Shown here: positions 1 through 16,844 of the stretch, piece after piece | Position numbering within the stretch: position 1 is the stretch's first letter | Layout: each line of letters opens with the position of its first letter | Source: a virus | DNA length: 17,296 bases | Strand: one strand, 5' to 3' | UHGV virus genome: UHGV-0304874 | Notes under the pieces: generated by a model | The model's database searches: none | What the model was told of the DNA's origin: nothing | What the model saw: the letters and a program-made list of their open reading frames with translations, nothing else | Position numbers and translations under genes: made by a program

Positions 1-1141
1 TATTTCTAATGAGGTTGTCAATGTATAACAAATTCTTAAAATCTTCTTCGGGAATTTTTTGTTCGTCTAAATCACTTTGGGATAGCTCGTTTATTAATGA
101 TGATATGTCATGTGTTAGAGTGTGTTTTTTTAATTTTGAGAGGTCAGATTTGATAATGTTATTTTTAGATAGGCTGTACTCATCTGTTATAAAGTTTTGA
201 ATCATCATCTCTCTTTTTGTGGATTTTTGATTCCCTCCAAAAGAGAGTGTGCAGCCTAATTCAAGGGCTAGTTCTGCCATTAATTCATCAAAGCCTTCTA
301 TTTCTACCCAATAAACTTTCTCTTGACCTAGAAGCCTAATTAGTTCTGGTGGGATGGCGTCATTTTGTCTTACGCACCAATATACCCCATTCCGTAGGTA
401 ATCGTCCTGTTTTAATAAATGTTTTAAAACATCCATGATAGAGCTGTCATTGCCAGCATAACCAACAAAAATAATCCCGTATTCTTTAGTGAATTCAGTT
501 AGTTTTTCACGAGTGTTACCTTCTAATGACTCGGTTTCTTTTAAAGAGCTTTTTATGCTATCAAATAGATAATCACCATGTAATTTTATTATTTTTGGTC
601 TTGAAGAAGTAATTGAGACGCCTTTAATTGATGAGTCATGTGCGCATAATAATGGTCTGTCAGAAGAAAATTGATAAAATGCTTCATTTATTAAATCGTC
701 AAAATTTGTTGTGAAGACAGTATCAAAAAACTTTGATTCAAATAGTTCAACGAGATAAGCATATCCAATTGAAGGTAATTTTTTGTCTACTTGAAGCTCA
801 ACAAATCTTCTGCGTTGAGATGGGAGATCAAATTTCTTTTCAAAAAGAGAGGAGTATTCATTGTTTGGGTCGTACCAGACTGGATGGTTTTTGGATAGCC
901 ATTTTTTAGCTTCTTCGGCATTGATATATTCTTCATTGGATAGTCTTGTGTATATCTCTTCTCTCCATTTTGCAACTAACTCTTGACCAGTTTTTATTCC
1001 TGATGTAACGGATGCACCAGCACCAAGAAAGAGTGAATAGTTAGGTGATGTACCTGATTTGATTTTTATATAATCAGCTAAATCTTTAACTGTTCTTTTT
1101 TTGGCAACCAGTTGTTCCTTGGTAGTATCACGATCAGACAT
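1..1141 (-). CDS. SIR2-like (sirtuin-fold, predicted NAD+-hydrolysing) domain protein, N-terminal ~380 aa; 3' end lies beyond the window start
   Basis: Manual minus-strand translation from ATG (rc of 1139-1141), preceded by GGAGGG, is open to position 2 with no TTA/CTA/TCA triplets in frame. Protein begins MSDRDTTKEQLVAKKRTVKDLADYIKIKSGTSPNYSLFLGAGASVTSGIKTG. Motifs: LFLGAGAS (Gly-rich loop), VFTTNFDDL (Asn), KIIKLHGDY (His), IIFVGYAGND. Not in the ORF track because it has no in-window stop. Confidence 0.6.
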   Translation of the reverse strand, partial: MSDRDTTKEQLVAKKRTVKDLADYIKIKSGTSPNYSLFLGAGASVTSGIKTGQELVAKWREEIYTRLSNEEYINAEEAKKWLSKNHPVWYDPNNEYSSLFEKKFDLPSQRRRFVELQVDKKLPSIGYAYLVELFESKFFDTVFTTNFDDLINEAFYQFSSDRPLLCAHDSSIKGVSITSSRPKIIKLHGDYLFDSIKSSLKETESLEGNTREKLTEFTKEYGIIFVGYAGNDSSIMDVLKHLLKQDDYLRNGVYWCVRQNDAIPPELIRLLGQEKVYWVEIEGFDELMAELALELGCTLSFGGNQKSTKREMMIQNFITDEYSLSKNNIIKSDLSKLKKHTLTHDISSLINELSQSDLDEQKIPEEDFKNLLYIDNLIRN

Positions 1142-1293
1142 TTTCCCTCCATAAATTATGCTGTGTGAAATAAGAATAATCCTAGGCATGGCTATTTTTA
1201 CATGAAATTCAATGGGTTTTCGTTTTTCTTATTTGCATTTTGTGACTGAGATCAAGCTATGAGGGAGAAATGCTTTTTTATTGTTCGCTAGAG

Positions 1294-1303
1294 GCTAATT
1301 AGC
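1294..1303. promoter_or_regulatory. Perfect 10-bp palindrome GCTAATTAGC upstream of the SIR2-like gene; possible operator
   Basis: Self-complementary 10-mer read directly from the sequence, in the AT-rich region between the SIR2-like gene start and cos. Confidence 0.2.
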
Positions 1304-1446
1304 TTGTACTAATAGTTTATGATGTACCATAGCGTTGAATGATTTTGCATGCATTTGTCAGATGCTTACTAATGTTGTTATGTCAGAGCTGGTGCGCTTT
1401 AGGTTATTTCATGCAACTGCATTAAAACCGACCCATGAAGTGGGCG

Positions 1447-1465
1447 GGCGAGGCGGGGAAAGCAC
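1447..1465 (+). other. cos: cos site: 19-nt cohesive-end sequence GGCGAGGCGGGGAAAGCAC, the P2/P4-type cos as recalled
   Basis: Exact 19-mer present as a GC-rich island in an AT-rich intergenic region, on the far side of Q from P as expected for the joined genome ends of a P2-type prophage. The identity with the P2/P4 cohesive end is from memory, not a database check. Confidence 0.55.
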
Positions 1466-1598
1466 TGCGCGCAATGATGTCAGTTTGAGGGCATCAGGCA
1501 TGGGGACACTACACAGTTTCATTTTTGTTATTAATTGTTTATCATATAAGTGTTTGTTTTTTGAACGGCATGTCGTGTGCTATATGGAGTGAATAGAA

Positions 1599-1868
1599 GT
1601 GACTAAATTTGACAAAAAAAAAGCAATTTCTATTTTAACAGAAAAAAAAGCCTTGCTCCCATGTCATCGGTGTGGAAATTCAAAGTTCATCATTTTGGAT
1701 GGCATATCATCACTTCCATTAATGGAAAATATGGAAATGATTGGTAGTATTGTTGTTGGCGGAATGAATGCTCCTGTATTACATGTGGCATGTGAGAATT
1801 GTGGTGCAGTTACTTCACATTTGCTTGGGGCACTTGGTTTAATGCCGGAGATTAAATCAAATGACTAA
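1599..1868 (+). CDS. Small four-cysteine (CxxC...CxxC, zinc-ribbon-like) protein, 89 aa, unknown function; first gene of a two-gene cargo operon
   Basis: ORF with GTG start 9 nt after GGAG (1586-1589). Two CxxC pairs (PCHRCG and ACENCG) about 43 residues apart. The last codons overlap the next gene start by 8 bp (ATGACTAA). AT-rich compared with the phage backbone. Confidence 0.5.
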   Translation: MTKFDKKKAISILTEKKALLPCHRCGNSKFIILDGISSLPLMENMEMIGSIVVGGMNAPVLHVACENCGAVTSHLLGALGLMPEIKSND

Positions 1869-2331
1869 GGATGTTTTTTTCTCTGATGAAGGTAGTGGTA
1901 AAAAAAGTGCTGTCTTGCATGGGGCGCAGGTTACAATAAACCCTGATTCGCAATTTACAAAAAAGATAATTAGGCAGACTGAGGTTGATGTTATTGTGAT
2001 AAGTGATGATAAACTTCATATAATTTTGACGAATTGCTTATCTAAAATTGCATCATTAAACCGCTGGTCAACACCTTTGGGTATTTTAATTACCTTGGCG
2101 GTAACTATGTTAACCACAAATTTTAAGAATTTTATTCTTCAGGATTCTGTGTGGGAGGCTGTTTTCTGGATGCTTATTTTTTTTAATATTATCTGGTTGG
2201 TGAAAAACATTCCATATAGACACTTATTTTTAACTGTTTGTCATTCTATAGGGGTTCGTAAAGATAAAAAAAGAATTAGTGATGTATACCACATTATAGA
2301 TATAATTAAACAAGGTGATACACGCTTTTGA
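1861..2331 (+). CDS. Predicted membrane protein, 156 aa, with a soluble N-terminal ~65 aa and two hydrophobic helices; second gene of the two-gene cargo operon
   Basis: ATG at 1861, 10 nt after GGAG (1847-1850), overlapping the upstream stop. Hydrophobic segments PLGILITLAVTMLTT and AVFWMLIFFNIIWLV. No motif I recognise. Confidence 0.5.
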   Translation: MTKDVFFSDEGSGKKSAVLHGAQVTINPDSQFTKKIIRQTEVDVIVISDDKLHIILTNCLSKIASLNRWSTPLGILITLAVTMLTTNFKNFILQDSVWEAVFWMLIFFNIIWLVKNIPYRHLFLTVCHSIGVRKDKKRISDVYHIIDIIKQGDTRF

Positions 2332-2364
2332 TTTAATATCAATATTTGATTGAGTATATAATAA

Positions 2365-2387
2365 AGCCGCCTGAGTTTATGGCGGCT
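2365..2387. terminator. Rho-independent terminator hairpin between the cargo operon and Q; most likely terminates the leftward P-Q transcript, possibly bidirectional
   Basis: Perfect 7-bp stem AGCCGCC / GGCGGCT with a 9-nt loop. On the minus strand it is followed by the U-rich run UUAUUAUAUA. It sits 21 bp past the Q stop codon. Confidence 0.6.
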
Positions 2388-2407
2388 AATATAGAGTGTG
2401 TGCTAAG

Positions 2408-3427
2408 TCATAATGTGTATTTGTTGAATCTAATTATTTCTTCGCCAACCCATTCATTAAGGGCAATAAAGCGAGATTGAATAGGAGTAAGCTCATTGCG
2501 GACAAAGACCTTTGCCACTTTCTCAATATCACCCAGCGACCCGACGTTCTCCGGCTTGCCGCCCATCAACTGAAAGGGGATGCGGTGCGCGTCCAGCAGG
2601 TCAGCGGCGCTGGCTTTTTTGATATTAAAAAAATCGTCCTTCGTTGCCACTTCACTGAGCGGGATAATTTTAATGCCGTCGGCTTTCCCCTGCGGGGCAT
2701 AGAGAAACAGATTTTTAAAGTTGTTGCGGCCTTTCGACTTGACCATGTTTTCGCGAAGCATTTCGATATCGTTGCGATCCTGCACGGCATCGGTGACGTA
2801 CATGATATATCCGGCATGCGCGCCGTTTTCGTAATACTTGCGGCGGAACAGCGTGGCCGACTCATTCAGCCAGGCAGAGTTAAGGGCGCTGAGATATTCC
2901 GGCAGGCCGTACAGCTCCTGATTAATATCCGGCTCCAGCAGATGAAACACGGAGCCGGGCGCGAAGGCTGTCGGCTCGTTGAAGGATGGCACCCACCAGT
3001 AAACATCCTCCTCCACGCCACGGCGGGTATATTTTGCCGGTGAGGTTTCCAGTCTGATGACCTTACCGGTGGTGCTGTAACGCTTTTCCAGAAACGCATT
3101 ACCGAACACCAGAAAATCCAGCACAAAGCGGCTGAAATCCTGCTGGGAAAGCCACGGATGCGGGATAAATGTCGAGGCCAGAATATTACGTTTGACGTAA
3201 ATCGGTGAGCTGTGATGCACGGCAGCACGCAGGCTTTTTGCCAGACCGGTAAAGCTGACCGGTGGCTCATACCATCTGCCGTTACTGATGCACTCGACGT
3301 AATCCAGAATGTCACGGCGGTCGAGTACCGGCACCGGCTCACCAAAGGTGAATGCCTCCATTTTCGGGGGGCTGGCGGTCATTGTTTTTGCCGCAGGTTG
3401 CGGTGTTTTCCCTTTTTTCTTGCTCAT
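2408..3427 (-). CDS. Q: Portal protein (P2 gpQ-like)
   Basis: 339-aa ORF starting MSKKKGKTPQPAAKT, recognised as P2 Q. Its ATG overlaps the P stop by 1 nt (TGATG). The last ~25 codons are noticeably AT-rich. Confidence 0.93.
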   Translation of the reverse strand: MSKKKGKTPQPAAKTMTASPPKMEAFTFGEPVPVLDRRDILDYVECISNGRWYEPPVSFTGLAKSLRAAVHHSSPIYVKRNILASTFIPHPWLSQQDFSRFVLDFLVFGNAFLEKRYSTTGKVIRLETSPAKYTRRGVEEDVYWWVPSFNEPTAFAPGSVFHLLEPDINQELYGLPEYLSALNSAWLNESATLFRRKYYENGAHAGYIMYVTDAVQDRNDIEMLRENMVKSKGRNNFKNLFLYAPQGKADGIKIIPLSEVATKDDFFNIKKASAADLLDAHRIPFQLMGGKPENVGSLGDIEKVAKVFVRNELTPIQSRFIALNEWVGEEIIRFNKYTL

Positions 3428-5199
3428 CAGTAAAACTCCAGAATGGTGGATGTCAGCGGGGTGCTGATACCGGCGGTGAGTGGCTCATTTAACAGGGCGT
3501 GCATGGTCGCCCAGGCGAGGTCGGCGTGGCTGGCTTCCTCGCTGCGGCTGGCCTCATAGGTGGCGCTGCGTCCGCTGCTGGTTATGGTCTTGCGGATAGC
3601 CATAAACGAGCTGGTGATGTCGGTGGCGCTGACGTCATATTCCAGACAGCCACGGCGGATAACGTCTTTTGCCTTGAGCACCATTGCGGTTTTCATTTCC
3701 GGTGTGTAGCGGATATCGCGCGCGGCGGGATAGAACGAGCGCACGAGCTGGAACACGCCGACACCGAGGCCGGTGGCATCAATACCGATGTATTCGACGT
3801 TATATTTTTCGGTGAGTTTTCGGATGGATTCAGCCTGGGTGGCAAAGTCCATGCCTTTCCACTGGTGACGCTCAAGTATTCTGAATTTGCCACCGGCCAC
3901 CACCGGCGGTGCCAGCACCACGCATCCGGCACTGTCGCCACGGTGTGACGGGTCGTAACCAATCCATACCGGGCGGGAGCCGAACGGATTGGCGGCAAAC
4001 GGCGCATAGTCTTCCCATTCTTCCAGCGTGTCGACCATGCAGCGTTGCAGCTCCTCGAACGGGAACACCGACGCCTTGTCGTCAACAAATTCACACATGA
4101 ACAGGTTTTTAAAATCGTCGGCGCTGTTTTCGCGTTTAAGCTGCTCAATGTCGAACAGCGTGCAGCCACCTTTCAGGGCATCCTCAATGGTGACAATCTG
4201 CCGCCACTGGCCGTCCGCACAGAGAAGCCCACCGGCAAGGGCGTTATGACTGACGTCGATTTCCACGCGTTCGGCGGCGCTGGCGCGTCCCCGGTTGAAC
4301 AGTTCACCCGACCAGAACGGGTAGGCGTCGTGCGCCAGCGTGGACGGGGTGGAGAAATAGGTCGAGCGCAGGTGACTCTGTGAGGCCATACCTGATGCCA
4401 CCTTACGCAGTACCTGAAAATTCGGGATCCAGAAAATCTCATCGACGTACAGGTCGCCGTTATGGCTCTGTGCGGTGTTGGAGTTGGTGCCGAGAAAAAT
4501 CAGTTTTGCACCGTTATTGCCCAGGACAATCGGGTCACCGGTCAGGTCAACGTCAACCAGCCGGGCAAAGGCAATGATGTATTCGCGGAACACATACGCC
4601 TGCGTTTTACTGGCCGACAGAAAAATCTGGTTATGGCCGGTTTTCAGGGCGCGCAGCAGCGCCTCGCGGGAAAAATAAAACGTCGCGCCAATCTGGCGGG
4701 ATTTCAGGATATCGCGGATGCGGTGCTCAAGTCCGGCGCGATACCAGTGCAACTGATATTCGAAAGACTGCTCAAAGAAAATCTGCTCCAGCTTTTCGAT
4801 GGCCTCGTCACTGAAAAAATTCTTTTTCGGTTTGCGACGCCCGCCTTTGTTGCGGTTAGCGACGTTCGGATTAAGGTCTGCCTCGTTGCCGGTCTGACTG
4901 TAGCGGTTGACCCGCGCCAGTCGTTCAATCTGGCGTCCCAGCAGGTCAATTTCCTTGAAATCACCGCCGGTTTTCTGCGGTTTGATGATGAGCTGGGTCA
5001 GCCGCGCTTCCAGACTCATTTCGACACGGCTGATGGGGGCAACGCTGTCCCAGCCGTCGCGCTGTTTCCAGCTCTGCACCGTCGGGCGTTTCATCTGCAA
5101 CATGGCGGCAATCTGCGGCACGGAAAAACCCTGCCAGTACAGCAGCGCCGCCTGACGACGCGGGTCGTGTAAAAGAGTGGTGTCTGTGGTGATGGCCAT
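3427..5199 (-). CDS. P: Terminase large (ATPase) subunit (P2 gpP-like)
   Basis: The track ORF 3427..5229 begins MPCIHHGEVFMAITTD. Starting at the internal Met (MAITTDTTLLHDPRRQAALLYWQGFSV) gives 590 aa, the P2 gpP length. Position and divergent orientation relative to O match P2. Confidence 0.93.
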   Translation of the reverse strand: MAITTDTTLLHDPRRQAALLYWQGFSVPQIAAMLQMKRPTVQSWKQRDGWDSVAPISRVEMSLEARLTQLIIKPQKTGGDFKEIDLLGRQIERLARVNRYSQTGNEADLNPNVANRNKGGRRKPKKNFFSDEAIEKLEQIFFEQSFEYQLHWYRAGLEHRIRDILKSRQIGATFYFSREALLRALKTGHNQIFLSASKTQAYVFREYIIAFARLVDVDLTGDPIVLGNNGAKLIFLGTNSNTAQSHNGDLYVDEIFWIPNFQVLRKVASGMASQSHLRSTYFSTPSTLAHDAYPFWSGELFNRGRASAAERVEIDVSHNALAGGLLCADGQWRQIVTIEDALKGGCTLFDIEQLKRENSADDFKNLFMCEFVDDKASVFPFEELQRCMVDTLEEWEDYAPFAANPFGSRPVWIGYDPSHRGDSAGCVVLAPPVVAGGKFRILERHQWKGMDFATQAESIRKLTEKYNVEYIGIDATGLGVGVFQLVRSFYPAARDIRYTPEMKTAMVLKAKDVIRRGCLEYDVSATDITSSFMAIRKTITSSGRSATYEASRSEEASHADLAWATMHALLNEPLTAGISTPLTSTILEFY

Positions 5200-5372
5200 G
5201 AATACCTCGCCGTGATGAATACACGGCAAGGCTACTGAGTCGCGCCCCGCGATTCGCTAAGGTGCTGTTGTGTCAGTGATAAACCATCCGGGACTGATGG
5301 CGGAGGATGCGCATCGTCGGGAAACTGATGCCGACATGTGACTCCTCTAATCACTATTCAGGACTCCTGACA
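5200..5372. promoter_or_regulatory. Divergent P / O intergenic region, expected to carry the Ogr-dependent late promoters for P-Q and O-N-M-L
   Basis: A 173-bp gap between divergently transcribed P and O, the same length as I recall for P2. I could not confidently pick out the promoter motifs by eye. Confidence 0.4.
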
Positions 5373-6227
5373 ATGGCAAAAAAAGTCTCAAAATTCTTTC
5401 GTATCGGCGTTGAGGGTGACACCTGTGACGGGCGTGTCATCAGTGCGCAGGATATTCAGGAAATGGCCGAAACCTTTGACCCGCGTGTCTATGGTTGCCG
5501 CATTAACCTGGAACATCTGCGCGGCATCCTGCCTGACGGTATTTTTAAACGTTATGGCGATGTGGCCGAACTGAAGGCCGAAAAGATTGACGATGATTCG
5601 GCGCTGAAAGGCAAATGGGCGCTGTTTGCGAAAATCACCCCGACCGATGACCTTATCGCGATGAACAAGGCCGCGCAGAAGGTCTATACCTCAATGGAAA
5701 TTCAGCCGAACTTTGCCAATACAGGCAAATGTTATCTGGTGGGTCTGGCCGTCACCGATGACCCGGCAAGCCTCGGCACGGAATACCTGGAATTCTGCCG
5801 CACGGCAAAACACAACCCTCTGAACCGCTTCAAATTAAGCCCTGAAAACCTGATTTCAGTGGCAACGCCTGTTGAGCTGGAATTTGAAGACCTGCCTGAA
5901 ACCGTGTTCACCGCCCTGACCGAAAAGGTGAAATCCATTTTTGGCCGCAAACAGGCCAGCGATGACGCCCGTCTGAATGACGTGCATGAAGCGGTGACCG
6001 CTGTTGCTGAACATGTGCAGGAAAAACTGAGCGCCACTGAGCAGCGCCTCGCTGAGGTGGAAACCGCCTTTTCCGCACTTAAGCAGGAGGTGACTGACAG
6101 GGCGGATGAAACCAGCCAGGCATTCACCCGCCTGAAAAACAGTCTCGACCACACCGAAAGTCTGACCCAGCAGCGCCGCAGCAAGGCCACCGGTGGTGGC
6201 GGTGACGCCCTGATGACGAACTGCTGA
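5373..6227 (+). CDS. O: Capsid scaffolding protein (P2 gpO-like)
   Basis: Track ORF 5307..6227; the P2-like N-terminus MAKKVSKFFRIGVEGDTCDGRVISAQDIQEMAETFDPRV starts at the ATG at 5373, giving 284 aa. Confidence 0.9.
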   Translation: MAKKVSKFFRIGVEGDTCDGRVISAQDIQEMAETFDPRVYGCRINLEHLRGILPDGIFKRYGDVAELKAEKIDDDSALKGKWALFAKITPTDDLIAMNKAAQKVYTSMEIQPNFANTGKCYLVGLAVTDDPASLGTEYLEFCRTAKHNPLNRFKLSPENLISVATPVELEFEDLPETVFTALTEKVKSIFGRKQASDDARLNDVHEAVTAVAEHVQEKLSATEQRLAEVETAFSALKQEVTDRADETSQAFTRLKNSLDHTESLTQQRRSKATGGGGDALMTNC

Positions 6228-6285
6228 CCGGCGTCAGTCAGTCCGGGAAAACCTTCACGATTAACCCTTAATTTCAGGAAAAACT

Positions 6286-7359
6286 ATGCGCCAGGAAACC
6301 CGCTTTAAATTTAATGCCTACCTGTCCCGTGTTGCCGAACTGAACGGCATCGACGCCGGTGATGTGTCGAAAAAGTTCACCGTTGAACCGTCGGTCACCC
6401 AGACCCTGATGAACACCATGCAGGAGTCCTCTGACTTTCTGACCCGCATCAACATTGTGCCGGTCAGCGAAATGAAAGGGGAAAAAATTGGTATCGGTGT
6501 CACCGGCTCCATTGCCAGCACCACCGACACCGCCGGTGGCACCGAGCGTCAGCCGAAGGACTTCTCGAAGCTGGCGTCCAACAAGTACGAATGCGACCAG
6601 ATTAACTTCGATTTTTATATCCGCTACAAAACGCTGGACCTGTGGGCGCGTTATCAGGATTTCCAGCTCCGTATCCGTAACGCCATTATTAAACGCCAGT
6701 CCCTTGATTTCATCATGGCCGGTTTTAACGGCGTGAAGCGTGCCGAAACCTCTGACCGCAGCAGCAATCCGATGTTGCAGGATGTGGCGGTCGGCTGGCT
6801 GCAGAAATACCGCAATGAAGCTCCGGCGCGCGTGATGAGCAAGGTCACTGACGAGGAAGGCCATACCACCTCTGAGGTTATCCGCGTGGGTAAGGGCGGT
6901 GATTATGTCAGCCTTGATGCACTGGTGATGGATGCGACCAATAACCTGATTGAACCGTGGTATCAGGAAGACCCTGACCTTGTGGTGATTGTGGGGCGTC
7001 AGCTACTGGCGGACAAGTATTTCCCCATCGTTAACAAGGAGCAGGACAACAGCGAAATGCTGGCCGCTGACGTCATCATCAGCCAGAAACGCATCGGTAA
7101 CCTGCCGGCGGTACGCGTCCCGTACTTCCCGGCGGATGCGATGCTCATCACAAAGCTGGAAAACCTGTCCATCTACTACATGGATGACAGCCATCGCCGC
7201 GTGATTGTGGAAAACCCGAAACTCGACCGCGTGGAGAACTACGAGTCAATGAACATTGATTACGTGGTGGAAGACTACGCCGCCGGTTGTCTGGTGGAAA
7301 AAATTAAGGTCGGTGATTTTTCCACACCGGCTAAGGCGACCGCAGAGCCGGGAGCGTAA
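6286..7359 (+). CDS. N: Major capsid protein (P2 gpN-like)
   Basis: 357 aa, MRQETRFKFNAYLSRVAELNGIDAGDVSKKF; length and position match P2 N. Confidence 0.95.
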   Translation: MRQETRFKFNAYLSRVAELNGIDAGDVSKKFTVEPSVTQTLMNTMQESSDFLTRINIVPVSEMKGEKIGIGVTGSIASTTDTAGGTERQPKDFSKLASNKYECDQINFDFYIRYKTLDLWARYQDFQLRIRNAIIKRQSLDFIMAGFNGVKRAETSDRSSNPMLQDVAVGWLQKYRNEAPARVMSKVTDEEGHTTSEVIRVGKGGDYVSLDALVMDATNNLIEPWYQEDPDLVVIVGRQLLADKYFPIVNKEQDNSEMLAADVIISQKRIGNLPAVRVPYFPADAMLITKLENLSIYYMDDSHRRVIVENPKLDRVENYESMNIDYVVEDYAAGCLVEKIKVGDFSTPAKATAEPGA

Positions 7360-7362
7360 CCG

Positions 7363-8106
7363 ATGACGAGTCCCGCACAGCGCCACATGATGCGGGTCTC
7401 GGCAGCGATGACCGCGCAGCGGGAAGCCGCCCCGCTGCGACATGCAACTGTCTATGAGCAGATGCTGGTTAAGCTCGCCGCAGACCAGCGCACACTGAAA
7501 GCAATTTATTCAAAAGAGCTGAAGGCCGCGAAAAAGCGCGAACTGCTGCCGTTCTGGTTGCCGTGGGTGAACGGCGTGCTGGAGCAGGGCAAAGGTGCAC
7601 AGGATGACATTCTGATGACAGTCATGCTGTGGCGTCTGGATACCGGCGATATTGCCGGTGCGCTGGAGATTGCCCGTTATGCCCTGAAGTACGGTCTGAC
7701 CATGCCGGGTAAACACCGCCGCACCCCGCCGTACATGTTCACCGAGGAAGTGGCGCTTGCGGCCATGCGCGCTCACGCTGCCGGTGAGTCTGTGGATCCC
7801 CGCCTGCTGATGGACACCCTCGAACTGACCGCCACGGCTGACATGCCTGATGAAGTGCGCGCAAAGCTGCACAAAATCACCGGTCTGTTTCTGCGTGACG
7901 CTGGTGATGCCGCCGGTGCGCTGGCTCACCTGCAACGTGCGACACAGCTCGACTGTCAGGCAGGCGTCAAAAAAGAGATTGAACGACTGGAGCGGGAGCT
8001 GAAACCGAAGCCGGAGCCGCAGCCCAAAGCGGCCTCCCGCGCCCCGCGTAAGACCCGGAGCGTGACACCGGCAAAACGTGGACGCCCGAAAAAGAAAGCC
8101 AGTTAA
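7363..8106 (+). CDS. M: Terminase small (endonuclease) subunit (P2 gpM-like)
   Basis: 247 aa, starts 4 nt after the N stop; basic Lys/Arg/Pro-rich C-terminal tail; position matches P2 M. Confidence 0.92.
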   Translation: MTSPAQRHMMRVSAAMTAQREAAPLRHATVYEQMLVKLAADQRTLKAIYSKELKAAKKRELLPFWLPWVNGVLEQGKGAQDDILMTVMLWRLDTGDIAGALEIARYALKYGLTMPGKHRRTPPYMFTEEVALAAMRAHAAGESVDPRLLMDTLELTATADMPDEVRAKLHKITGLFLRDAGDAAGALAHLQRATQLDCQAGVKKEIERLERELKPKPEPQPKAASRAPRKTRSVTPAKRGRPKKKAS

Positions 8107-8205
8107 CAACCGAATGCGCCCCGCGCCAGGGCGGCACGCCGGTCAGTGAGGGTGAATCACCTGACACTGCACCGGTGTCCACCGCCCGACTTTTCAGAGG
8201 TAGTC

Positions 8206-8715
8206 ATGATGACGCTGATTATTCCGCGAAAGGAGGCTCCCGTGTCCGGTGAGGGTACGGTGGTCATCCCGCAACCGGCAGGCGACGAGCCGGTGATTAA
8301 AAACACGTTCTTTTTTCCCGATATCGACCCGAAGCGCGTCCGGGAACGTATGCGCCTTGAGCAGACCGTCGCCCCCGCCCGTCTGCGTGAGGCCATCAAG
8401 TCAGGCATGGCGGAGACGAATGCGGAGCTGTACGAGTACCGCGAACAGAAAATTGCCGCCGGTTTTACGCGTCTGGTGGAAGTCCCGGCGGACGATATCG
8501 ACGGTGAAAGCATCAAAGTTTTTTACTACGAGCGCGCCGTGTGTGCGATGGCGACCGCATCGCTTTATGAGCGTTATCGCGGCGTGGATGCCAGTGCCAA
8601 AGGCGACAAGAAGGCCGACAGCATTGACAGCACCATTGATGAACTGTGGCGGGATATGCGCTGGGCGGTGGCGCGTATCCAGGACAAGCCGCGCTGCATC
8701 GTGAGTCAAATCTGA
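8206..8715 (+). CDS. L: Head completion / stabilisation protein (P2 gpL-like)
   Basis: ATG at 8206 after AGAGG gives 169 aa (MMTLIIPRKEAPVSGEG...); the track's longer ORF from 8146 lacks this RBS. The stop overlaps the X start. Confidence 0.88.
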   Translation: MMTLIIPRKEAPVSGEGTVVIPQPAGDEPVIKNTFFFPDIDPKRVRERMRLEQTVAPARLREAIKSGMAETNAELYEYREQKIAAGFTRLVEVPADDIDGESIKVFYYERAVCAMATASLYERYRGVDASAKGDKKADSIDSTIDELWRDMRWAVARIQDKPRCIVSQI

Positions 8716-8918
8716 TGAAGACCTTTGCGCTACAGGGCGACACGCTCGACGCCATCTGTGTCCGGTATTACGGGCGCACTGAGGGCGTGGTTGAGACCGT
8801 GCTCGCCGCAAATCCGGGACTGGCTGAACTGGGGGCGGTGCTGCCGCACGGCACCGCCGTCGAACTGCCCGACGTTCAGACCGCGCCCGTGGCTGAAACT
8901 GTCAATCTGTGGGAGTAA
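8715..8918 (+). CDS. X: Tail protein X (P2 gpX-like)
   Basis: 67 aa from the ATG at 8715 (MKTFALQGDTLDAICVRYYGRTEG...), overlapping the L stop (TGATG); inside track ORF 8646..8918. Confidence 0.85.
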   Translation: MKTFALQGDTLDAICVRYYGRTEGVVETVLAANPGLAELGAVLPHGTAVELPDVQTAPVAETVNLWE

Positions 8919-8921
8919 CGC

Positions 8922-9203
8922 ATGACAGCAGAAGAAAAAAGCGTCCTGTCGCTTTTCATGATTGGGGTGCTGATTGTTGTCGGCAAGGTGCTTGCCGGTG
9001 GTGAACCCATCACCCCGCGTCTGTTTATCGGGCGCATGTTGCTCGGTGGTTTTGTCTCGATGGTTGCCGGTGTTGTTCTGGTGCAGTTTCCTGACCTGTC
9101 ACTGCCTGCGGTGTGCGGCATCGGCTCCATGCTGGGTATCGCCGGCTATCAGGTGATTGAGATTGCCATTCAGCGCCGTTTTAAGGGCAGGGGGAAACCG
9201 TAA
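8922..9203 (+). CDS. Y: Holin (P2 gpY-like)
   Basis: 93 aa with hydrophobic helices (LSLFMIGVLIVVGKVLAGG; LLGGFVSMVAGVVLV) and a charged C-terminus; position matches P2 Y. Confidence 0.85.
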   Translation: MTAEEKSVLSLFMIGVLIVVGKVLAGGEPITPRLFIGRMLLGGFVSMVAGVVLVQFPDLSLPAVCGIGSMLGIAGYQVIEIAIQRRFKGRGKP

Positions 9204-9700
9204 TGCCGGTAATTAACACGCATCAGAATATCGCCGCCTTTCTCGACATGCTGGCCGTGTCCGAAGGGACGGCGAATCATCCGCTGACGAAAAACCGGGG
9301 CTATGACGTGATAGTCACCGGACTGGACGGAAAGCCGGAAATTTTCACCGACTACAGTGACCACCCGTTCGCACATGGCCGACCAGCGAAGGTGTTTAAC
9401 CGTCGCGGTGAAAAATCCACGGCCTCCGGTCGCTATCAGCAGCTTTACCTGTTCTGGCCGCACTACCGTAAACAGCTTGCCCTGCCTGATTTCAGTCCGT
9501 TGTCACAGGACAGACTCGCCATTCAGTTGATCCGCGAACGCGGTGCACTGGATGACATCCGGGCGGGACGCATTGAGCGCGCCATTTCACGCTGTCGCAA
9601 TATCTGGGCGTCCCTGCCGGGTGCCGGTTACGGTCAGCGTGAGCATTCACTGGAAAAACTGGTCACCGTCTGGCGTACCGCTGGCGGCGTACCGGCTTAA
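9203..9700 (+). CDS. K: Endolysin / lysozyme (P2 gpK-like)
   Basis: 165 aa, MPVINTHQNIAAFLDMLAVSEGT...; its start overlaps the Y stop (TAATG); canonical P2 position. Confidence 0.9.
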   Translation: MPVINTHQNIAAFLDMLAVSEGTANHPLTKNRGYDVIVTGLDGKPEIFTDYSDHPFAHGRPAKVFNRRGEKSTASGRYQQLYLFWPHYRKQLALPDFSPLSQDRLAIQLIRERGALDDIRAGRIERAISRCRNIWASLPGAGYGQREHSLEKLVTVWRTAGGVPA

Positions 9701-9714
9701 ACGGAGTAAACACC

Positions 9715-10140
9715 ATGAAGAAATTATCCCTTTCACTGATGCTGAACGTGTCGCTGGCACTGATGCTGGCACTGTCCCTGATTTACCCGCAGAGCGTGGC
9801 CGTCAGTTTTGTCGCCGCCTGGGCGATTCTGGCGACGGTTATCTGTGTGGTTGCCGGTGGTGTCGGCGTGTATGCCACTGAGTATGTGCTGGAACGCTAC
9901 GGGCGGGAGCTGCCGCCGGAATCGCTGGCCGTGAAGATTGTCGCGTCGCTGTTTTTACAGCCGGTGCCGTGGCGCAGGCGGGCAGCGGCTCTGGTGGTGA
10001 TGGTGGCGACGTTTATCTCGCTGGTCGCTGCCGGGTGGATTTTTACTGCGCTGATTTATCTTGTGGCGTCGCTGTTTTTCCGGCTGATACGTACGGCCTG
10101 CCGTCAGCGTTTTGAGGGGCGGGAACCATGTCAAAGCTGA
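9715..10140 (+). CDS. lysA: Lysis accessory membrane protein LysA
   Basis: 141 aa, very hydrophobic (MKKLSLSLMLNVSLALMLALSLIYP...), sits between K and lysB as in P2. Confidence 0.8.
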   Translation: MKKLSLSLMLNVSLALMLALSLIYPQSVAVSFVAAWAILATVICVVAGGVGVYATEYVLERYGRELPPESLAVKIVASLFLQPVPWRRRAAALVVMVATFISLVAAGWIFTALIYLVASLFFRLIRTACRQRFEGREPCQS

Positions 10141-10553
10141 TGATTGTGCTGGTCGTGTTGTTATCACTGGCGGTGGCCGGTCTGTTTCTGGCGAAGCATG
10201 AAAACGCCAGCCTGCGCACCTCGCTGGACAGGGCGAACAACGTCGCCAGCGGGCAGCAGACGACCATCACCATGCTGAAAAATCAGCTTCATGTTGCCCT
10301 CACCAGAGCAGACAAAAACGAGCTGGCGCAGGTGGCACTGCGTCAGGAACTGGAGAACGCGGCGAAGCGTGAAGCACAGCGCGAGAAAACCATCACGAGG
10401 TTACTGAATGAAAACGAAGATTTTCGCCGCTGGTACGGCGCTGGCCTGCCTGATGCTGTGCGCCGGTTGCACCAGCGCCCGGCCTGCACCGACGCCAGTG
10501 ATTGTCGCCAACGCCTGCCCGAAAGTGAGCCTTTGCCCGATGCCGGGCAGTGA
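10128..10553 (+). CDS. lysB: LysB, Rz-like spanin component
   Basis: 141 aa with an N-terminal transmembrane helix (LMIVLVVLLSLAVAGLFLA) and a coiled-coil-like remainder; overlaps the lysA end; P2 position. Confidence 0.8.
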   Translation: MSKLMIVLVVLLSLAVAGLFLAKHENASLRTSLDRANNVASGQQTTITMLKNQLHVALTRADKNELAQVALRQELENAAKREAQREKTITRLLNENEDFRRWYGAGLPDAVRRLHQRPACTDASDCRQRLPESEPLPDAGQ

Positions 10554-10698
10554 CCCGGAGACGAACGGCGATTTAAGTGCCGATATCCGACAGCTTGAGA
10601 ACGCGCTGGCACGCTGTGCCAGCCAGGTAAAAATGATTAAACACTGTCAGGACGAAAACGATGCTCAAACCCGACAGCCTGCGCAGGGCGCTGACTGA
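10408..10698 (+). CDS. lysC: LysC, Rz1-like outer-membrane lipoprotein spanin, started inside lysB in another frame
   Basis: 96-aa ORF with a signal peptide and lipobox-like LCAGC, then Pro-rich sequence; GAGG 7 nt upstream of the ATG; nested in the 3' part of lysB, the known P2 arrangement. Confidence 0.7.
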   Translation: MKTKIFAAGTALACLMLCAGCTSARPAPTPVIVANACPKVSLCPMPGSDPETNGDLSADIRQLENALARCASQVKMIKHCQDENDAQTRQPAQGAD

Positions 10699-11128
10699 TG
10701 CCGTCACGGTGCTGAAAACCAGTCCCGAGATGCTGCGGATATTCGTTGATAACGGGAGTATTGCCTCCACACTGGCGACGTCGCTGTCATTCGAAAAGCG
10801 TTACACGCTCAATGTGATTGTGACCGACTTTACCGGTGATTTTGACCTGCTCATCGTGCCGGTGCTGGCGTGGCTGCGGGAAAATCAGCCCGACATCATG
10901 ACCACCGACGCAGGCCAGAAAAAGGGCTTCACGTTTTATGCAGACATCAACAATGACAGCAGCTTTGATATCAGCATCAGCCTGATGCTGACCGAGCGCA
11001 CGCTGGTCAGTGAGGTGGAAGGCGCGCTGCATGTGAAGAATATCCCGGAACCCACGCCGCCGGAGCCGGTCACCCGCCCGATGGAGCTGTATATCAATGG
11101 CGAACTGGTGAGCAAGCGGGATGAATGA
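10661..11128 (+). CDS. R: Tail completion protein (P2 gpR-like)
   Basis: 155 aa, MLKPDSLRRALTDAVTVLKTSPEMLRIFVDNG...; length and position match P2 R. Confidence 0.9.
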   Translation: MLKPDSLRRALTDAVTVLKTSPEMLRIFVDNGSIASTLATSLSFEKRYTLNVIVTDFTGDFDLLIVPVLAWLRENQPDIMTTDAGQKKGFTFYADINNDSSFDISISLMLTERTLVSEVEGALHVKNIPEPTPPEPVTRPMELYINGELVSKRDE

Positions 11129-11231
11129 GTTTAAGCGTTTTGAAGACCGGCTGGCCGACATTGTGCTCAACAGTACGCAGGCGTCTTTCTGTACTGAATA
11201 CCGCGTCGTGACCGGAGGCTCGGATGAGTGA
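11121..11231 (+). pseudogene. 36-codon remnant ORF at the S position: apparent in-frame fusion of the S start to the J end, with tail genes S, V, W and J absent
   Basis: ATG at 11121 overlaps the R stop by 8 bp and the stop at 11229-11231 overlaps the I start by 8 bp, the overlaps P2 has at R/S and J/I. Only 36 codons (MNEFKRFEDRLADIVLNSTQASFCTEYRVVTGGSDE) lie where P2 has roughly 2.8 kb. Confidence 0.55.
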
Positions 11232-11754
11232 TTCGCGACTGCTGCCGACCGGCTCATCACCGCTTGAAGTTGCCGCCGCAAAAGCCTGTGCGGAAATTGA
11301 AAAAACGCCGGTCAGGATTCGTGAACTGTGGAACCCGGACACCTGCCCGGCAAATCTGCTGCCGTGGCTGGCGTGGGCGTTTTCGGTCGACAGGTGGGAT
11401 GAAAAGTGGCCGGAAGCGACCAAACGTGCCGTTATCCGCGATGCCTATTTCATCCACTGTCATAAAGGCACTATCGGCGCAATCCGGCGTGTGGTGGAGC
11501 CGCTCGGCTATCTCATTAACGTGACGGAGTGGTGGGAAAACAGTGACCAGCCAGGCACCTTCCGGCTTGATATTGGTGTACTGGAAAGCGGTATCACAGA
11601 GGCAATGTATCAGGAAATGGAACGGCTGATTGCTGATGCCAAACCTGCAAGCCGCCACCTTATTGGCCTGAACATTACCCGGGACATTCCCGGCTACCTG
11701 TTCGCCGGTGGTGTGGCTTATGACGGCGATGTAATTACGGTTTACCCCGGATAA
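11224..11754 (+). CDS. I: Baseplate assembly protein (P2 gpI-like)
   Basis: 176 aa, MSDSRLLPTGSSPLEVAAAKACAEIEKTPV...; recognised as P2 I; directly upstream of H. Confidence 0.9.
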   Translation: MSDSRLLPTGSSPLEVAAAKACAEIEKTPVRIRELWNPDTCPANLLPWLAWAFSVDRWDEKWPEATKRAVIRDAYFIHCHKGTIGAIRRVVEPLGYLINVTEWWENSDQPGTFRLDIGVLESGITEAMYQEMERLIADAKPASRHLIGLNITRDIPGYLFAGGVAYDGDVITVYPG

Positions 11755-11764
11755 GTGAGGAATA

Positions 11765-13810
11765 ATGAGCACAAAATTCAAAACCGTTATCACCACTGCC
11801 GGTGCAGCAAAGCTGGCAGCGGCAACCGCGCCGGGAGGGCGGAAGGTCAACATTACCACGATGGCCGTCGGGGATGGCGGTGGTAAATTGCCTGTCCCGG
11901 ATGCCGGACAGACCGGGCTTATCCACGAAGTCTGGCGACATGCGCTGAACAAAATCAGCCAGGACAAACGAAACAGTAATTATATTATCGCAGAGCTGGT
12001 TATTCCGCCGGAGGTGGGCGGTTTCTGGATGCGAGAGCTTGGCCTGTACGATGATGCGGGAACGTTAATTGCCGTGGCGAACATGGCCGAAAGTTATAAA
12101 CCTACCCTTGCCGAAGGCTCAGGGCGTTCGCAGACCTGCCGCATGGTCATCATCGTCAGCAGTGTGGCCTCAGTGGAGCTGACCATTGACACCACAACGG
12201 TGATGGCGACGCAGGATTACGTTGATGACAAAATTGCAGAGCATGAACAGTCACGACGTCACCCGGACGCCTCGCTGACCGCAAAAGGTTTTACTCAGTT
12301 AAGCAATGCGACCAACAGCACGTCTGAAACACTGGCCGCAACGCCGAAAGCGGTTAAGGCCGCATATGACCTTGCTAACGGGAAATATACCGCACAGGAC
12401 GCTACCACAGCGCGAAAAGGTCTTGTCCAGCTAAGTAGTGCGACCAACAGCATGGCTGAGACGCTCGCCGCAACACCAAAAGCCGTTAAGACGGTAATGG
12501 ATGAAACGAACAAGAAAGCGCCATTAAACAGCCCTGCACTGACCGGAACGCCAACGACGCCAACTGCGCGACAGGGAACGAATAATACTCAGATCGCAAA
12601 CACGGCTTTCGTTATGGCCGCGATTGCCGCCCTTGTAGACTCGTCGCCTGACGCACTGAATACGCTGAACGAGCTGGCGGCGGCGCTGGGCAATGACCCG
12701 AATTTTGCTACCACCATGACTAATGCGCTTGCGGGTAAGCAACCGAAAGATGCCACTTTGACGGCGCTGGCGGGGCTTGCTACTGCGGCAGACAGGTTTC
12801 CGTATTTTACGGGGAATGATGTTGCCAGCCTGGCAACCCTGACAAAAGTCGGACGGGATATTCTGGCTAAAGCGACCGTTACTGCCGTTATCGAATACCT
12901 CGGTTTGCAGGAAACGGTAAACAGGGCCAGGAACGCGGTGCAAAAGAATGGCGATACCTTGTCCGGTGGGCTTACTTTTGAAAACGACTCAATCCTTGCC
13001 TGGATTCGAAATACTGACTGGGCAAAGATTGGATTTAAAAATGATGCCGACAGCGATACTGATTCATATATGTGGTTTGAAACAGGTGACAACGGCAATG
13101 AATATTTCAAATGGAGAAGTCGCCAGAGCACCACAACAAAAGACCTGATGAATCTTAAATGGGATGCTCTGTATGTTCTTGTTAAAGCCCTTTTCAGCAG
13201 TGAAGTAAAAATATCTACAGTCAATGCACTGAGGATATTTAATTCATCTTTTGGGGCTATTTTTCGCCGTTCTGAAGAAAACCTGTATATCATTCCTACA
13301 CGAGAAAATGAGGGTGAAAATGGAGATATTGGGCCATTAAGGCCATTCGGCATCAACTTAAGAACAGGAGTTGTGTCTGTTGGTAATGGTGCCAGGATTG
13401 ATGGCGGGCTGGCACTTGGCACGAATAACGCGTTGGGTGGGAACTCTATTGTTCTTGGTGATAACGACACCGGATTTAAACAAAATGGCGATGGTAATCT
13501 GGATGTTTATGCTAATAACGTCCATGTTATGCGCTTTGTTTCCGGAAGCATTCAAAGTAATAAGACCATAAATATTACGGGGCGTGTTAATCCCTCGGAT
13601 TACGGTAACTTTGATTCCCGCTATGTGAGAGATATCAGACTTGGCACACGTGTTGTCCAGACCATGCAGAAAGGGGTGATGTATGAGAAAGCAGGGCACG
13701 TAATTACCGGGCTTGGTATTGTCGGTGAAGTCGATGGTGATGACCCCGCAGTATTCAGGCCAATACAAAAATACATCAATGGCACATGGTATAACGTCGC
13801 ACAGGTGTAA
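11765..13810 (+). CDS. H: Tail fibre protein (P2 gpH-like) with a lower-GC, probably mosaic C-terminal domain
   Basis: 681 aa; N-terminus MSTKFKTVITTAGAAKLAAATAPGGRKVNITTMAVGDGGG is P2 H-like; internal duplicated SETLAATPKAVK motif; base composition turns AT-rich from about 12970. Confidence 0.9.
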   Translation: MSTKFKTVITTAGAAKLAAATAPGGRKVNITTMAVGDGGGKLPVPDAGQTGLIHEVWRHALNKISQDKRNSNYIIAELVIPPEVGGFWMRELGLYDDAGTLIAVANMAESYKPTLAEGSGRSQTCRMVIIVSSVASVELTIDTTTVMATQDYVDDKIAEHEQSRRHPDASLTAKGFTQLSNATNSTSETLAATPKAVKAAYDLANGKYTAQDATTARKGLVQLSSATNSMAETLAATPKAVKTVMDETNKKAPLNSPALTGTPTTPTARQGTNNTQIANTAFVMAAIAALVDSSPDALNTLNELAAALGNDPNFATTMTNALAGKQPKDATLTALAGLATAADRFPYFTGNDVASLATLTKVGRDILAKATVTAVIEYLGLQETVNRARNAVQKNGDTLSGGLTFENDSILAWIRNTDWAKIGFKNDADSDTDSYMWFETGDNGNEYFKWRSRQSTTTKDLMNLKWDALYVLVKALFSSEVKISTVNALRIFNSSFGAIFRRSEENLYIIPTRENEGENGDIGPLRPFGINLRTGVVSVGNGARIDGGLALGTNNALGGNSIVLGDNDTGFKQNGDGNLDVYANNVHVMRFVSGSIQSNKTINITGRVNPSDYGNFDSRYVRDIRLGTRVVQTMQKGVMYEKAGHVITGLGIVGEVDGDDPAVFRPIQKYINGTWYNVAQV

Positions 13811-13813
13811 TTT

Positions 13814-14341
13814 ATGCAGCATTTAAAAAATATTACTGCGGGTAATCCAAAAACTGTTGCCCAATATCAACTGACAAAAAATTTTGATGTTATCTGGTTA
13901 TGGTCCGAAGAGGGAAAAAACTGGTATGAGGAAGTAAGTAATTTTCAGGAAGACACGATAAAGATTGTTTACGACGAGAATAATATAATTGTCGGCATCA
14001 CCAGAGATGCTTCAACGCTTAACCCTGAAGGTTTCAGCGTTGTCGAGGTTCCTGATATTACCTCCAACCGACGTGCTGATGACTCAGGTAAATGGATGTT
14101 TAAGGATGGTGCCGTGATTAAGCGGATTTATACGGCAGATGAACAGGAGCAACAGGCAGAATCACAAAAGGCAGCTTTACTTTCCGAAGCTGAATCCGTG
14201 ATTTTGCCGCTGGAACGCGCTGTCAGGCTGAATATGGCGACGGATGAGGAACGCAGCCGACTGGAAGCATGGGAACGCTACAGCGTTCTGGTCAGTCGTG
14301 TGGATCCTGCAAATCCCGAATGGCCGGAAATGCCGCAATAA
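13814..14341 (+). CDS. G: Tail fibre assembly chaperone (P2 gpG-like)
   Basis: 175 aa, starts 4 nt after the H stop; position and length match P2 G. Confidence 0.88.
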
Positions 14342-14509
14342 GTTGTATGAGCTCTGGTGTGAGCTTACATATCTATGGCACAGAGTAAAGCCTAATCTGA
14401 CAGTCCGTTCTGTGCCAGTAGCGGACGTTTGAATAAATTATTGATTAACTAAAGTTTTTGGCATTAAATTTTCAATTAAAATGTTCGCATTGATTTATTG
14501 GAGTAAATA

Positions 14510-14887
14510 ATGGATATACATGCAAAAAGAGTTGGCAGTCCACTTTATAAAATTATTATGTACTTAAATAAGTATGAAGAAGATACACTGGAAGACATAA
14601 AACTTCAGTTTCTTTTAAAAAATTTAAAAACTCATTTCAAGAAACTGTTTTATATGATTACTTACATTAATAAAATTCAAAAAGATGCTGAGTTCATCAG
14701 AAAACATGATGCAACATCAATTGTCAGCATTAGTGCTATTGAGTATTGCTATTATAAAATCAGCACGATATGGGATATTGCATATCAGATAGCTGATAAA
14801 TTAATTTTTCCAACTAAAAAAATGGCAACAAATATGATTACCTTGAAAATCATTTCCAGCAATATGCACAGGAATTTCCAGATTTGA
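14510..14887 (+). CDS. Hypothetical protein, 125 aa, AT-rich cargo in the G-FI (Z/fun-position) island
   Basis: ATG 5 nt after GGAGT (14500-14504); strongly AT-rich; no recognisable motif. Confidence 0.4.
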   Translation: MDIHAKRVGSPLYKIIMYLNKYEEDTLEDIKLQFLLKNLKTHFKKLFYMITYINKIQKDAEFIRKHDATSIVSISAIEYCYYKISTIWDIAYQIADKLIFPTKKMATNMITLKIISSNMHRNFQI

Positions 14888-15035
14888 ATTTAAAATGGTA
14901 TAAGGACTTTAATAAAATAAGATAGTTCATGGAGGGATAACAGTAAATCCTTATTATGTCAACGATGATAATATTAAAACAAAGATTTGTTTCCAAGCAT
15001 ATGACTCTGATCTAAACGATCTGATTCAACCTCAT

Positions 15036-15455
15036 ATGATGTATTCAAATAGATTCAATAACAATATTAATTTTGCTGATTACTATTTTACCTTTTATAC
15101 TCATCTTCTCTATTCATATCTTTTTGATTTTTTTGATTTTGTACTTCTTGAGCTAAACAAAGATAAATTACATGATTTAGACAATCTTATTCTTGATGAT
15201 ATACCGCACAAATTGTTTGGTGTTCATCATGAAACATGGTTGTTATCTGATGTTGATCAATTTATGAAAATTACAAGAGAAATGATTTCCCTACAAATAG
15301 CTGATGGTTGTTTAAATAAAATTGAGAAAATACCCTCAAGTGATATTGAACATTTTTTTAACAACTTTCCATTTTGTCTTATGACAAAGGTTAGCTCCGG
15401 AGATTGGGTATTGGTTGAGGATAAAGCGGCTGAAACACAGTCATCGGACACTTAA
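15036..15455 (+). CDS. Hypothetical protein, 139 aa, AT-rich cargo; weak translation signals, possibly a gene fragment
   Basis: ORF with tandem ATG ATG at 15036 but no clear Shine-Dalgarno; the frame is open upstream to 14916 without a start; acidic Asp/Phe-rich N-terminal half. Confidence 0.33.
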   Translation: MMYSNRFNNNINFADYYFTFYTHLLYSYLFDFFDFVLLELNKDKLHDLDNLILDDIPHKLFGVHHETWLLSDVDQFMKITREMISLQIADGCLNKIEKIPSSDIEHFFNNFPFCLMTKVSSGDWVLVEDKAAETQSSDT

Positions 15456-15472
15456 ATTTTTTTTGTGCCAAA

Positions 15473-15615
15473 GTCTACTCCTCGCTCGTCACAGGCTTTG
15501 GCATTCGTTTCAACAACCAAGTGATAGCATATATTGTGACCTGCACCCCGTTGATTCATACATCCTCGATGTAAGCAATCCCTTGAGAACGTCCACTCCT
15601 CGCTCTTAGCAGATC
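15473..15615 (+). repeat. Pair of 15-bp direct repeats (GTCTACTCCTCGCTC at 15473-15487, GTCCACTCCTCGCTC at 15601-15615) in the gap between the AT-rich ORFs and the nuclease-like ORF
   Basis: Read directly: 14/15 identical, 128 bp apart, at the composition boundary between two cargo blocks. Confidence 0.4.
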
Positions 15616-15749
15616 ACACGGTTCTTCAAACGATCCGCTTCGTACCAGAAACGAACTTTTATCTCAAATTTGAACCTTTTAGTGGATGACGACGTTTGTG
15701 TCTTCAAGTAGTCTTAAAAGCATGCGGATAGTGCATAGGAAAAGCAGAA

Positions 15750-16586: not shown

Positions 16587-16608
16587 TTTCATACATAAAC
16601 CATGCTCC

Positions 16609-16640
16609 CGCATGTCCGCATGTCCGCATGTCCGCATTTC
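16609..16640 (+). repeat. Tandem 8-bp repeat (CCGCATGT x3, then CCGCATTT) just downstream of the nuclease-like ORF
   Basis: Read directly: CCGCATGTCCGCATGTCCGCATGTCCGCATTT. Confidence 0.7.
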
Positions 16641-16844
16641 GCTCAAAGCAGACTGTCAGATTTGATAGCGTTTGGGCTATGTAAATTGTCAGTTGGAAAA
16701 TGAGTGAGTGCAAATCATGGCAGGCTGGCGGATTACCCGCCTTTTCTTTGTCTGTTGTTTCATCCCCTGACCAGCCAGGTCAAATAGCGTCTCATGCTCT
16801 GCACAACAGAAAATAGTTGCACCCATTAACCACGGAGTTAAACG

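Follow-up and report, generated by a model that had tools for sequence, protein, structure and literature searches.

A P2-type cos site with foreign cargo on both sides in a tail-defective prophage of Escherichia coli

We analysed a 17,296-nucleotide stretch of DNA (UHGV virus genome UHGV-0304874; hereafter, the window). Positions 1447–1465 are very probably the cut site of a functional-looking P2-type cos that has an asymmetric signal and separates two independent cargo slots, in an element that would be a packageable, tail-defective recombinant.

Results

A P2/P4 cohesive end within a conserved core

The first-pass annotation of the window took the 19-mer to be the cohesive end of P2 and P4, and alignment bears this out: GGCGAGGCGGGGAAAGCAC is identical to the annotated cosL (1–19) and cosR (33575–33593) of P2 (NC_001895) and to the initial 19 nt of P4 (NC_001609). 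It is single-copy in the window when up to 3 mismatches are allowed, with 0.01 occurrences expected per shuffle. Judged by its sequence, 1447–1465 is the predicted site of staggered cutting by terminase (Table 1). The same element carries the terminase and portal genes Q, P and M, with an accessory region on the gpA side; gpA itself lies beyond the window, 3.1 kb to the left in a 99.4%-identical locus (L001, from E. coli SWHEFF_58). Since the element is an integrated prophage, the cos is present in joined-ends form, as had been annotated.

Table 1 Features of the window, with coordinates, strand and basis of assignment
Feature	Position	Strand	Basis or remark
SIR2-family cargo gene, 5′ part	1–1141	-	Start codon 1139–1141; runs off the left end of the window
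SIR2 leader and presumed promoter region	1142–1321	-	Inferred from position only
Distal left arm, three phased TGCAT-type repeats	1322–1354	.	Fixed distance across loci
Conserved cos core	1411–1472 (-36 to +26)	.	Most informative block among the 118 unique cos regions stacked
Imperfect palindrome ACCCA-TGAAG-TGGGC within core	1431–1445	.	Terminator scan flags the minus strand
Cohesive end, 19 nt, GGCGAGGCGGGGAAAGCAC	1447–1465	+	Exact match to P2 cosL/cosR and P4 left end
Right-hand cargo module, 1015 bp	1473–2487	+	L002 homology breaks off at 1472 and picks up again at 2488
Cargo ORF1, 89 aa, two CxxC pairs (zinc-ribbon-like)	1599–1868	+	WP_087891114, hypothetical protein in L001 and L003
Cargo ORF2, 156 aa, two hydrophobic helices	1861–2331	+	WP_023567683; start overlaps ORF1 end by 8 nt
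GC-rich hairpin GCCGCC...GGCGGC, then TTTATTAT on the minus strand	2366–2386	-	Read from sequence
Portal gene Q, 339 aa	2408–3427	-	Pfam Phage_portal; 95% identical to P2 gpQ
Terminase large (ATPase) subunit P, trans-acting partner of cos	3427–5199	-	Terminase_5 (gpP-like HTH), Terminase_6N and Terminase_6C, full length
Terminase small/endonuclease subunit M	7363–8106	+	Pfam Phage_term_smal, 3e-47; annotated in L001 as terminase endonuclease subunit
2301-bp deletion junction	11151–11157	.	V and W lost entirely, S and J for the most part

We stacked the cos regions of 120 IMG/VR loci carrying the exact 19-mer together with those of P2, P4, phage 186 and four E. coli loci, aligned on the 19-mer; because the IMG/VR loci were chosen by the exact 19-mer, conservation of the 19-mer itself is by construction. 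Across the 118 unique cos regions, high information is found only at -36 to +26, relative to the 19-mer, and in motifs at -125 to -95. The first of these blocks, the core, is composed of ATGCAACTGCATTAAAACC, a short palindrome, the 19-nt cohesive end and TGCGCGC (its text, left to right, being ATGCAaCTGCATTAAAACCG, the palindrome, the 19-mer and TGCGCGC). In the window it is identical to the P2 55-bp core at 52/55 positions, a variant that falls inside the spread of 127 natural cores. According to two later papers (PMC9594776 and PMC5694545, citing Ziermann and Calendar 1990), P2 and P4 are homologous over a 55-bp core only and use the same terminase, and the core block of the window matches the 55-bp core that these papers credit to that work. 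How much flanking sequence terminase needs, a question on which the site had been thought to bear, was to that extent largely answered already. The cos-region match to a related locus (L007) is confined to 1413–1472, and E. coli genomes also give core-only matches: among complete genomes, the canonical junction is present in 1537 records and the other matches cover a 60-bp core only.

Within the core, the T of the window at -6 pairs with an A at -12, a combination found in phage 186 and in 5/127 sequences; T at -6 is shared with three other loci and phage 186. The cohesive end of phage 186 departs from the 19-mer at two positions. A structural constraint, sought as covariation of -12 and -6 in the palindrome, was unsupported, with an A-C mismatch in most sequences. 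On the minus strand the palindrome is followed by TTTTAAT, a T-rich run, and looks like an intrinsic terminator acting on transcripts that cross cos leftwards.

Conservation reaches far to the left of cos and stops 7 bp to the right

The second conserved block lies in the left arm and consists of TGCAT-type repeats. We counted these in 63 loci in which the intervening spacers are <70% identical. TGCAT occurs at -124 to -119, at -111/-110 (47/63 loci), at -101/-100 (48/63) and also at -29 (58/63), and the density of TGCA is ~2.6 per 47 nt in the repeat zone vs ~0.1 elsewhere. This layout, at a fixed distance, is common to P2-like phages, P4-like satellites and the right end of phage 186. In the window the distal repeats read ATGTA (1322), TGAAT (1336) and TGCAT (1346, overlapping a second copy at 1350), so that two of the three are degenerate; the same variant is present, identical, in two loci that carry the same SIR2 gene (L002 and L052). 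A weaker CCAG..CTGG box lies near -62, and an IHF consensus between repeats and core showed no positional enrichment in the 63 loci. A dif/cer-like Xer site left of cos, of the kind suggested by work on the P2 tin-old region, was rejected, the best match to the 28-bp dif having 12 mismatches.

On the right, conservation ceases after TGCGCGC: from +27 onwards, each of the eight kinds of right-hand cargo diverges, as do P4-like satellites. The conserved stretch is therefore 7 bp on this side, against a conserved arm of ~125 bp on the left. We infer a one-sided functional cos: leftwards, towards what is cosR in mature DNA, it spans ~125 bp, and rightwards 7 bp. Lambda cos comprises a nicking site, cosN, and cosB, in which the R sites, repeats that hold terminase, lie on one side only; by analogy with cosB, the TGCAT repeats are most likely docking sites for terminase. 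They may already have been described in work of the 1990s; published minimal-cos endpoints were not found in the literature searched, Ziermann and Calendar 1990 lying outside it.

Foreign cargo lies on both sides of cos

Base composition agrees with the first-pass description of the cos as flanked on both sides by foreign cargo: G+C content is 29–40% at 1–1400 and 1500–2480, vs 47–65% in the phage core from 2500 onwards. To the left, the SIR2-family gene starts 305 bp from the 19-mer, close to the 300 bp first estimated; in P2, the old gene starts 194 bp left of cos. The SIR2 region is 99.7% identical to L002 and 99.4% identical to L001, where the gene is annotated as a SIR2 family protein (WP_074530306); a full-length relative has 864 aa. 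Pfam identifies SIR2_2 in the protein at 6e-15, and PADLOC an Aga_SIR2/PDC-S65-type N-terminal domain, of the type that accompanies short Argonautes. Scans of 1050–2500 for sigma-70 promoters and terminators gave counts not above those of shuffled sequences, and located no promoter for the SIR2 gene or for the operon on the other side.

The right-hand module begins at 1473, 7 bp past the cohesive end, and has 29–39% G+C. In its place, P2-like phages have a canonical 258 bp made up of a spacer next to cos, the tQ terminator and the final 80 nt of Q; the module instead holds an AT-rich upstream region, ORF1, ORF2, a GC hairpin and a divergent Q 3′ end. ORF1 has a GTG start at 1599, 133 bp past the 19-mer, where a two-gene operon about 130 bp away had been proposed. 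The close packing of cargo that had been proposed for both sides is thus asymmetric: on this side the module starts 7 bp past the end, and on the left the SIR2 gene starts 305 bp off and leaves the ~125-bp arm intact.

PADLOC returned no match for ORF1, and Pfam only below-threshold hits to Lar and Ribosomal_L37e; ORF2 matched nothing in Pfam or PADLOC, and a search of INPHARED phages with the operon DNA gave no match. Homologues of ORF1 form a small family only, and the named sources of the ORF1 and ORF2 families are all Enterobacterales. Homologues of ORF2, at 59–65% identity, always lie behind a 90-aa ORF. Given that the homologues are always paired and occur at varied sites, we conclude that ORF1 and ORF2, the latter a two-helix membrane protein, are a small mobile cassette. 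From its location, our guess would be that it is a candidate small defence or exclusion system. Among the ORF1/ORF2-type pairs (L130, L132 and L134), one occupies the S-V slot of a Klebsiella P2-like prophage, and others lie at non-phage chromosomal sites of Proteus and Serratia.

Downstream of the cassette, the hairpin matches the annotated tQ of P2 in position and form and likely replaces the tQ terminator of the P-Q operon; it went uncalled in a consensus terminator scan. Over its last 27 codons (2408–2487), Q has a divergent, AT-rich allele acquired together with the cargo module. Since the Q 3′ end is replaced or divergent in every locus with right-hand cargo, recombination on the right has its boundary within Q.

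Left and right cargo assort independently

The same SIR2 gene is found with and without the operon. In L002 it stands beside a canonical cos-Q junction; another 16 complete genomes have the SIR2 module across 1–1472 and omit the operon, and only one complete genome has SIR2 gene and operon together. Conversely, the operon is found with either SIR2 or a DUF7380 protein on its left. The operon module is present in 8/5426 complete E. coli genomes, all at >=99.7% identity, and at least 6 of these have a non-SIR2 left flank; it also lies behind different left cargo in L003 and L058. Homology to L003, which has the same operon and the DUF7380 protein as left cargo, starts at 1412. Because left and right partners are swapped in this way, left and right cargo assort independently, with the crossover within the 62-bp core. 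A histogram of ungapped pairwise breakpoints was left unused, as it is blurred by indels and by the 20-nt scoring window. We conclude that the combination in the window is a recombinant of SIR2-bearing and operon-bearing P2-like phages, with a crossover inside the cos core. The reshuffling could have been by homologous exchange in the core, or co-resident genomes could have been joined at their cohesive ends and then crossed over a second time in the backbone; the data fit both routes. The idea of cohesive-end joining between co-resident genomes was already raised by Rousset et al. (PMC9122126).

The interval between cos and Q is occupied in 8/92 IMG/VR P2-like loci that have Q to the right of cos (9%), by 0.9–3.2 kb of extra DNA; the remaining 84/92 have the canonical cos-Q distance, which in P2 measures about 170 bp. 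By comparison, gpA lies 0.9 to 5.7 kb from cos. In the seven other occupied loci, the extra DNA has 33–37% G+C, and PADLOC identified in it DRT2, a type IV retron (reverse transcriptase and 2TM effector), PD-T4-4 A and B, an Avs5-like SIR2 protein, a HEC-02/PD-T4-4-like ATPase and a PDC-S02 candidate. Two features of a hotspot are thus present, namely foreign composition on both sides and alternative left and right cargos behind the same backbone. We conclude that the cos-Q interval is a real second cargo slot, one that is less often used.

The prophage is tail-defective and retains its packaging genes

The element is a P2-like prophage of E. coli. Its backbone was assigned from Pfam searches of the window ORFs and from the RefSeq annotation of 98–99% identical loci (SWHEFF_58 and 806883-11-2019), and the gene order rightward from cos is Q, P, O (scaffold), N (capsid), M, L, X, lysis genes and R. 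By Pfam, the genes for the portal, both terminase subunits, scaffold and capsid are full length. The genes gpA, ogr, int and cox are absent from the window, and an Rfam scan of the whole window found nothing.

Aligned to L007, window positions 2488–11157 correspond to 6099–14768 and positions 11151–17296 to 17063–23215. Window position 11157 thus joins L007 14768 to 17070, and the stretch L007 14769–17069 has been deleted. The junction has a short imperfect microhomology and leaves the first 12 codons of S in frame with the end of J, giving a 36-aa S′-′J fusion. None of the complete E. coli genome matches listed has this 2301-bp deletion. We conclude that the prophage is tail-defective, the loss falling in the tail/baseplate genes S to J. 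A third cargo slot, at the Z/fun position between G and FI (14510–16586), holds three genes, including one for a restriction-endonuclease-like protein (15750–16586); the middle gene (about 14884–15455) is frameshifted relative to L007, and downstream coordinates are shifted by 7 nt.

The first-pass annotation had described the element as defective and had questioned whether it can still be packaged. Its defectiveness stands, on account of the S-to-J deletion and the frameshift. The defect concerns tails and baseplate rather than packaging: the packaging genes are intact and the core lies within natural variation. With conserved cis elements and intact head and packaging genes, cutting and packaging would be expected if the prophage is inducible. 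Its DNA should therefore, as far as can be read from the sequence, still undergo cutting and packaging once the prophage is induced. If the repeats matter, packaging could be less efficient with the distal ones degenerate. In L001 and L003, the same right-hand module lies beside full-length morphogenesis genes.

Discussion

We propose that the cis-acting packaging signal consists of the core (1411–1472) and a left arm of ~125 bp with phased TGCAT repeats at 1322–1354, and that to the right of the cut end it extends over the 7 bp TGCGCGC only. As in lambda cosB, repeats and core presumably dock terminase (gpM/gpP). The cos module of ~150 bp would split the gpA-gpQ hotspot into an A-cos slot, filled here by a SIR2 defence-type gene, and a cos-Q slot, filled by the two-gene cassette. 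A cross of a SIR2-bearing with an operon-bearing P2-like phage, with the crossover in the cos core, would give the combination in the window. On induction, its DNA would be cut and packaged, and because of the S–J deletion infectious particles would need the tails of a helper. A broader form of this model, which we advance tentatively, is that the TGCAT repeats, the CCAG..CTGG box and the core together dock terminase, that the requirement on the right ends 7 bp past the cut, and that cos acts as a fixed joint at which co-resident P2-like phages reshuffle genome ends, each with its own cargo slot. Such a joint would explain why defence cargo piles up on both sides of cos.

The reach of the signal could be read differently. 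The TGCAT repeats might serve the transcription of the leftward cargo gene or have another regulatory function, in which case the packaging signal would be the core of ~60 bp alone. The P2 old-tin transcript starts ~150 bp left of cos, so that its -35 region would overlap the repeats, and the citing papers mention a 55-bp core only. However, the repeats are equally conserved, and at the same distance, in P4-like satellites that have no leftward cargo gene and in which psu, on the same strand, ends a constant 164 bp from cos; moreover, the repeats are retained regardless of cargo. We therefore consider a purely regulatory role unlikely. Conversely, terminase might also require the canonical P2 right flank (~160 bp from cos to Q), such that the operon impairs packaging and only prophages that have stopped forming particles tolerate cos-Q cargo. 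The near-constant cos-to-Q distance and the similar right flank in 84/92 P2-like loci would fit such a requirement, as would one engineering paper in which longer flanks improved transduction (PMC9594776). Yet P4 is packaged by the P2 terminase and has no P2 right flank (PMC9122126; P2/P4 alignment), the deposited phages phiCTX and pro147 carry cos-Q cargo (ctx and retron Ec48, respectively), and eight unrelated cargos all start at +27. A need for the P2 right flank is thus very improbable.

A further possibility is that the cos in the window is a decayed, non-functional remnant, with packaging disabled by the cargo insertion and point changes. The 2.3-kb deletion and the frameshift elsewhere are signs of a dying prophage, two distal TGCAT repeats are degenerate, and the core has the rare T at -6. 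Against this, an identical left arm stands beside a canonical cos-Q junction in L002, and the SIR2 module covers 1–1472 in the 16 further complete genomes; T at -6 recurs in three further loci and in phage 186, which is viable; both TGCGCGC and the 19-mer are perfect; and in 8 complete genomes the right-hand module lies beside intact morphogenesis genes. We regard decay of the site as very improbable, and favour a functional-looking, one-sided cos.

The natural cargo boundaries amount to a deletion series, which would indicate that a P2/P4 cosmid needs ~125–130 bp of cosR-side and only 7 bp of cosL-side sequence, limits that are useful for the design of compact transducing particles. Since the two halves of the gpA-gpQ hotspot assort independently, we suggest that surveys of it are better split at cos. 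The cos-Q half is a small, clean place in which to search for compact defence systems, and the cassette in the window is an uncharacterised candidate. What these results add is modest, in that the packaging signal is delimited to -125 to +26 and the hotspot halves are shown to be independent; current understanding is not overturned.

The cos in the window resembles those of P2 and P4 in its identical 19-nt end, in TGCGCGC on the right and TGCATTAAAACC with the palindrome on the left, in TGCAT ~100–125 bp to the left, and in having P and M nearby; it differs in its two degenerate distal repeats and the T at -6. From +27, P2 keeps the spacer, tQ and the Q 3′ end, whereas the window has the imported module of 1015 bp. 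As a mechanistic analogue, lambda cos has no sequence similarity to the window.

The interval between gpA and gpQ, adjoining cos, is a published defence hotspot of P2 (Rousset et al. 2022, PMC9122126; also PMC13586616), and the window agrees with it in location and in AT-rich, defence-type cargo (SIR2). One arrangement in Table S5A of PMC9122126, WP_001288417 + WP_087891114 + WP_023567683, is the DUF7380 gene with the operon described here. In that study A-Q is one locus, whereas our data divide it at cos into two independently assorting slots, with cos-Q filled in ~9% of loci. PMC5694545 (citing Dodd and Egan 1996 and Nakayama 1999) also suggests the cosL-Q position as a hotspot for foreign genes in P2-like phages. 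In phiCTX (NC_003278), ctx is likewise a self-contained accessory gene in the interval from cosL to the portal gene, is encoded on the other strand from Q, and is annotated with its own promoter and terminators; phiCTX has another cohesive end and other cos repeats, and the gene starts 340 bp from cos, vs 133 bp in the window.

Escherichia phage pro147 (NC_028896) is a deposited phage genome with cargo on both sides of a P2-type cos, in the order Q, retron Ec48 effector and reverse transcriptase, cos, another reverse transcriptase, gpA (22204–26193). It differs from the window in its cargo genes and in its right-hand cargo, which is 2.26 kb long and on the opposite strand. Two reverse-transcriptase systems thus surround cos in pro147, retron Ec48 towards Q and, towards gpA, a distinct RNA-directed DNA polymerase. 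We conclude that the cos in the window is an ordinary P2-type site inside a known hotspot, and that cargo on both sides of cos is a minority configuration that is already known from direct precedents.
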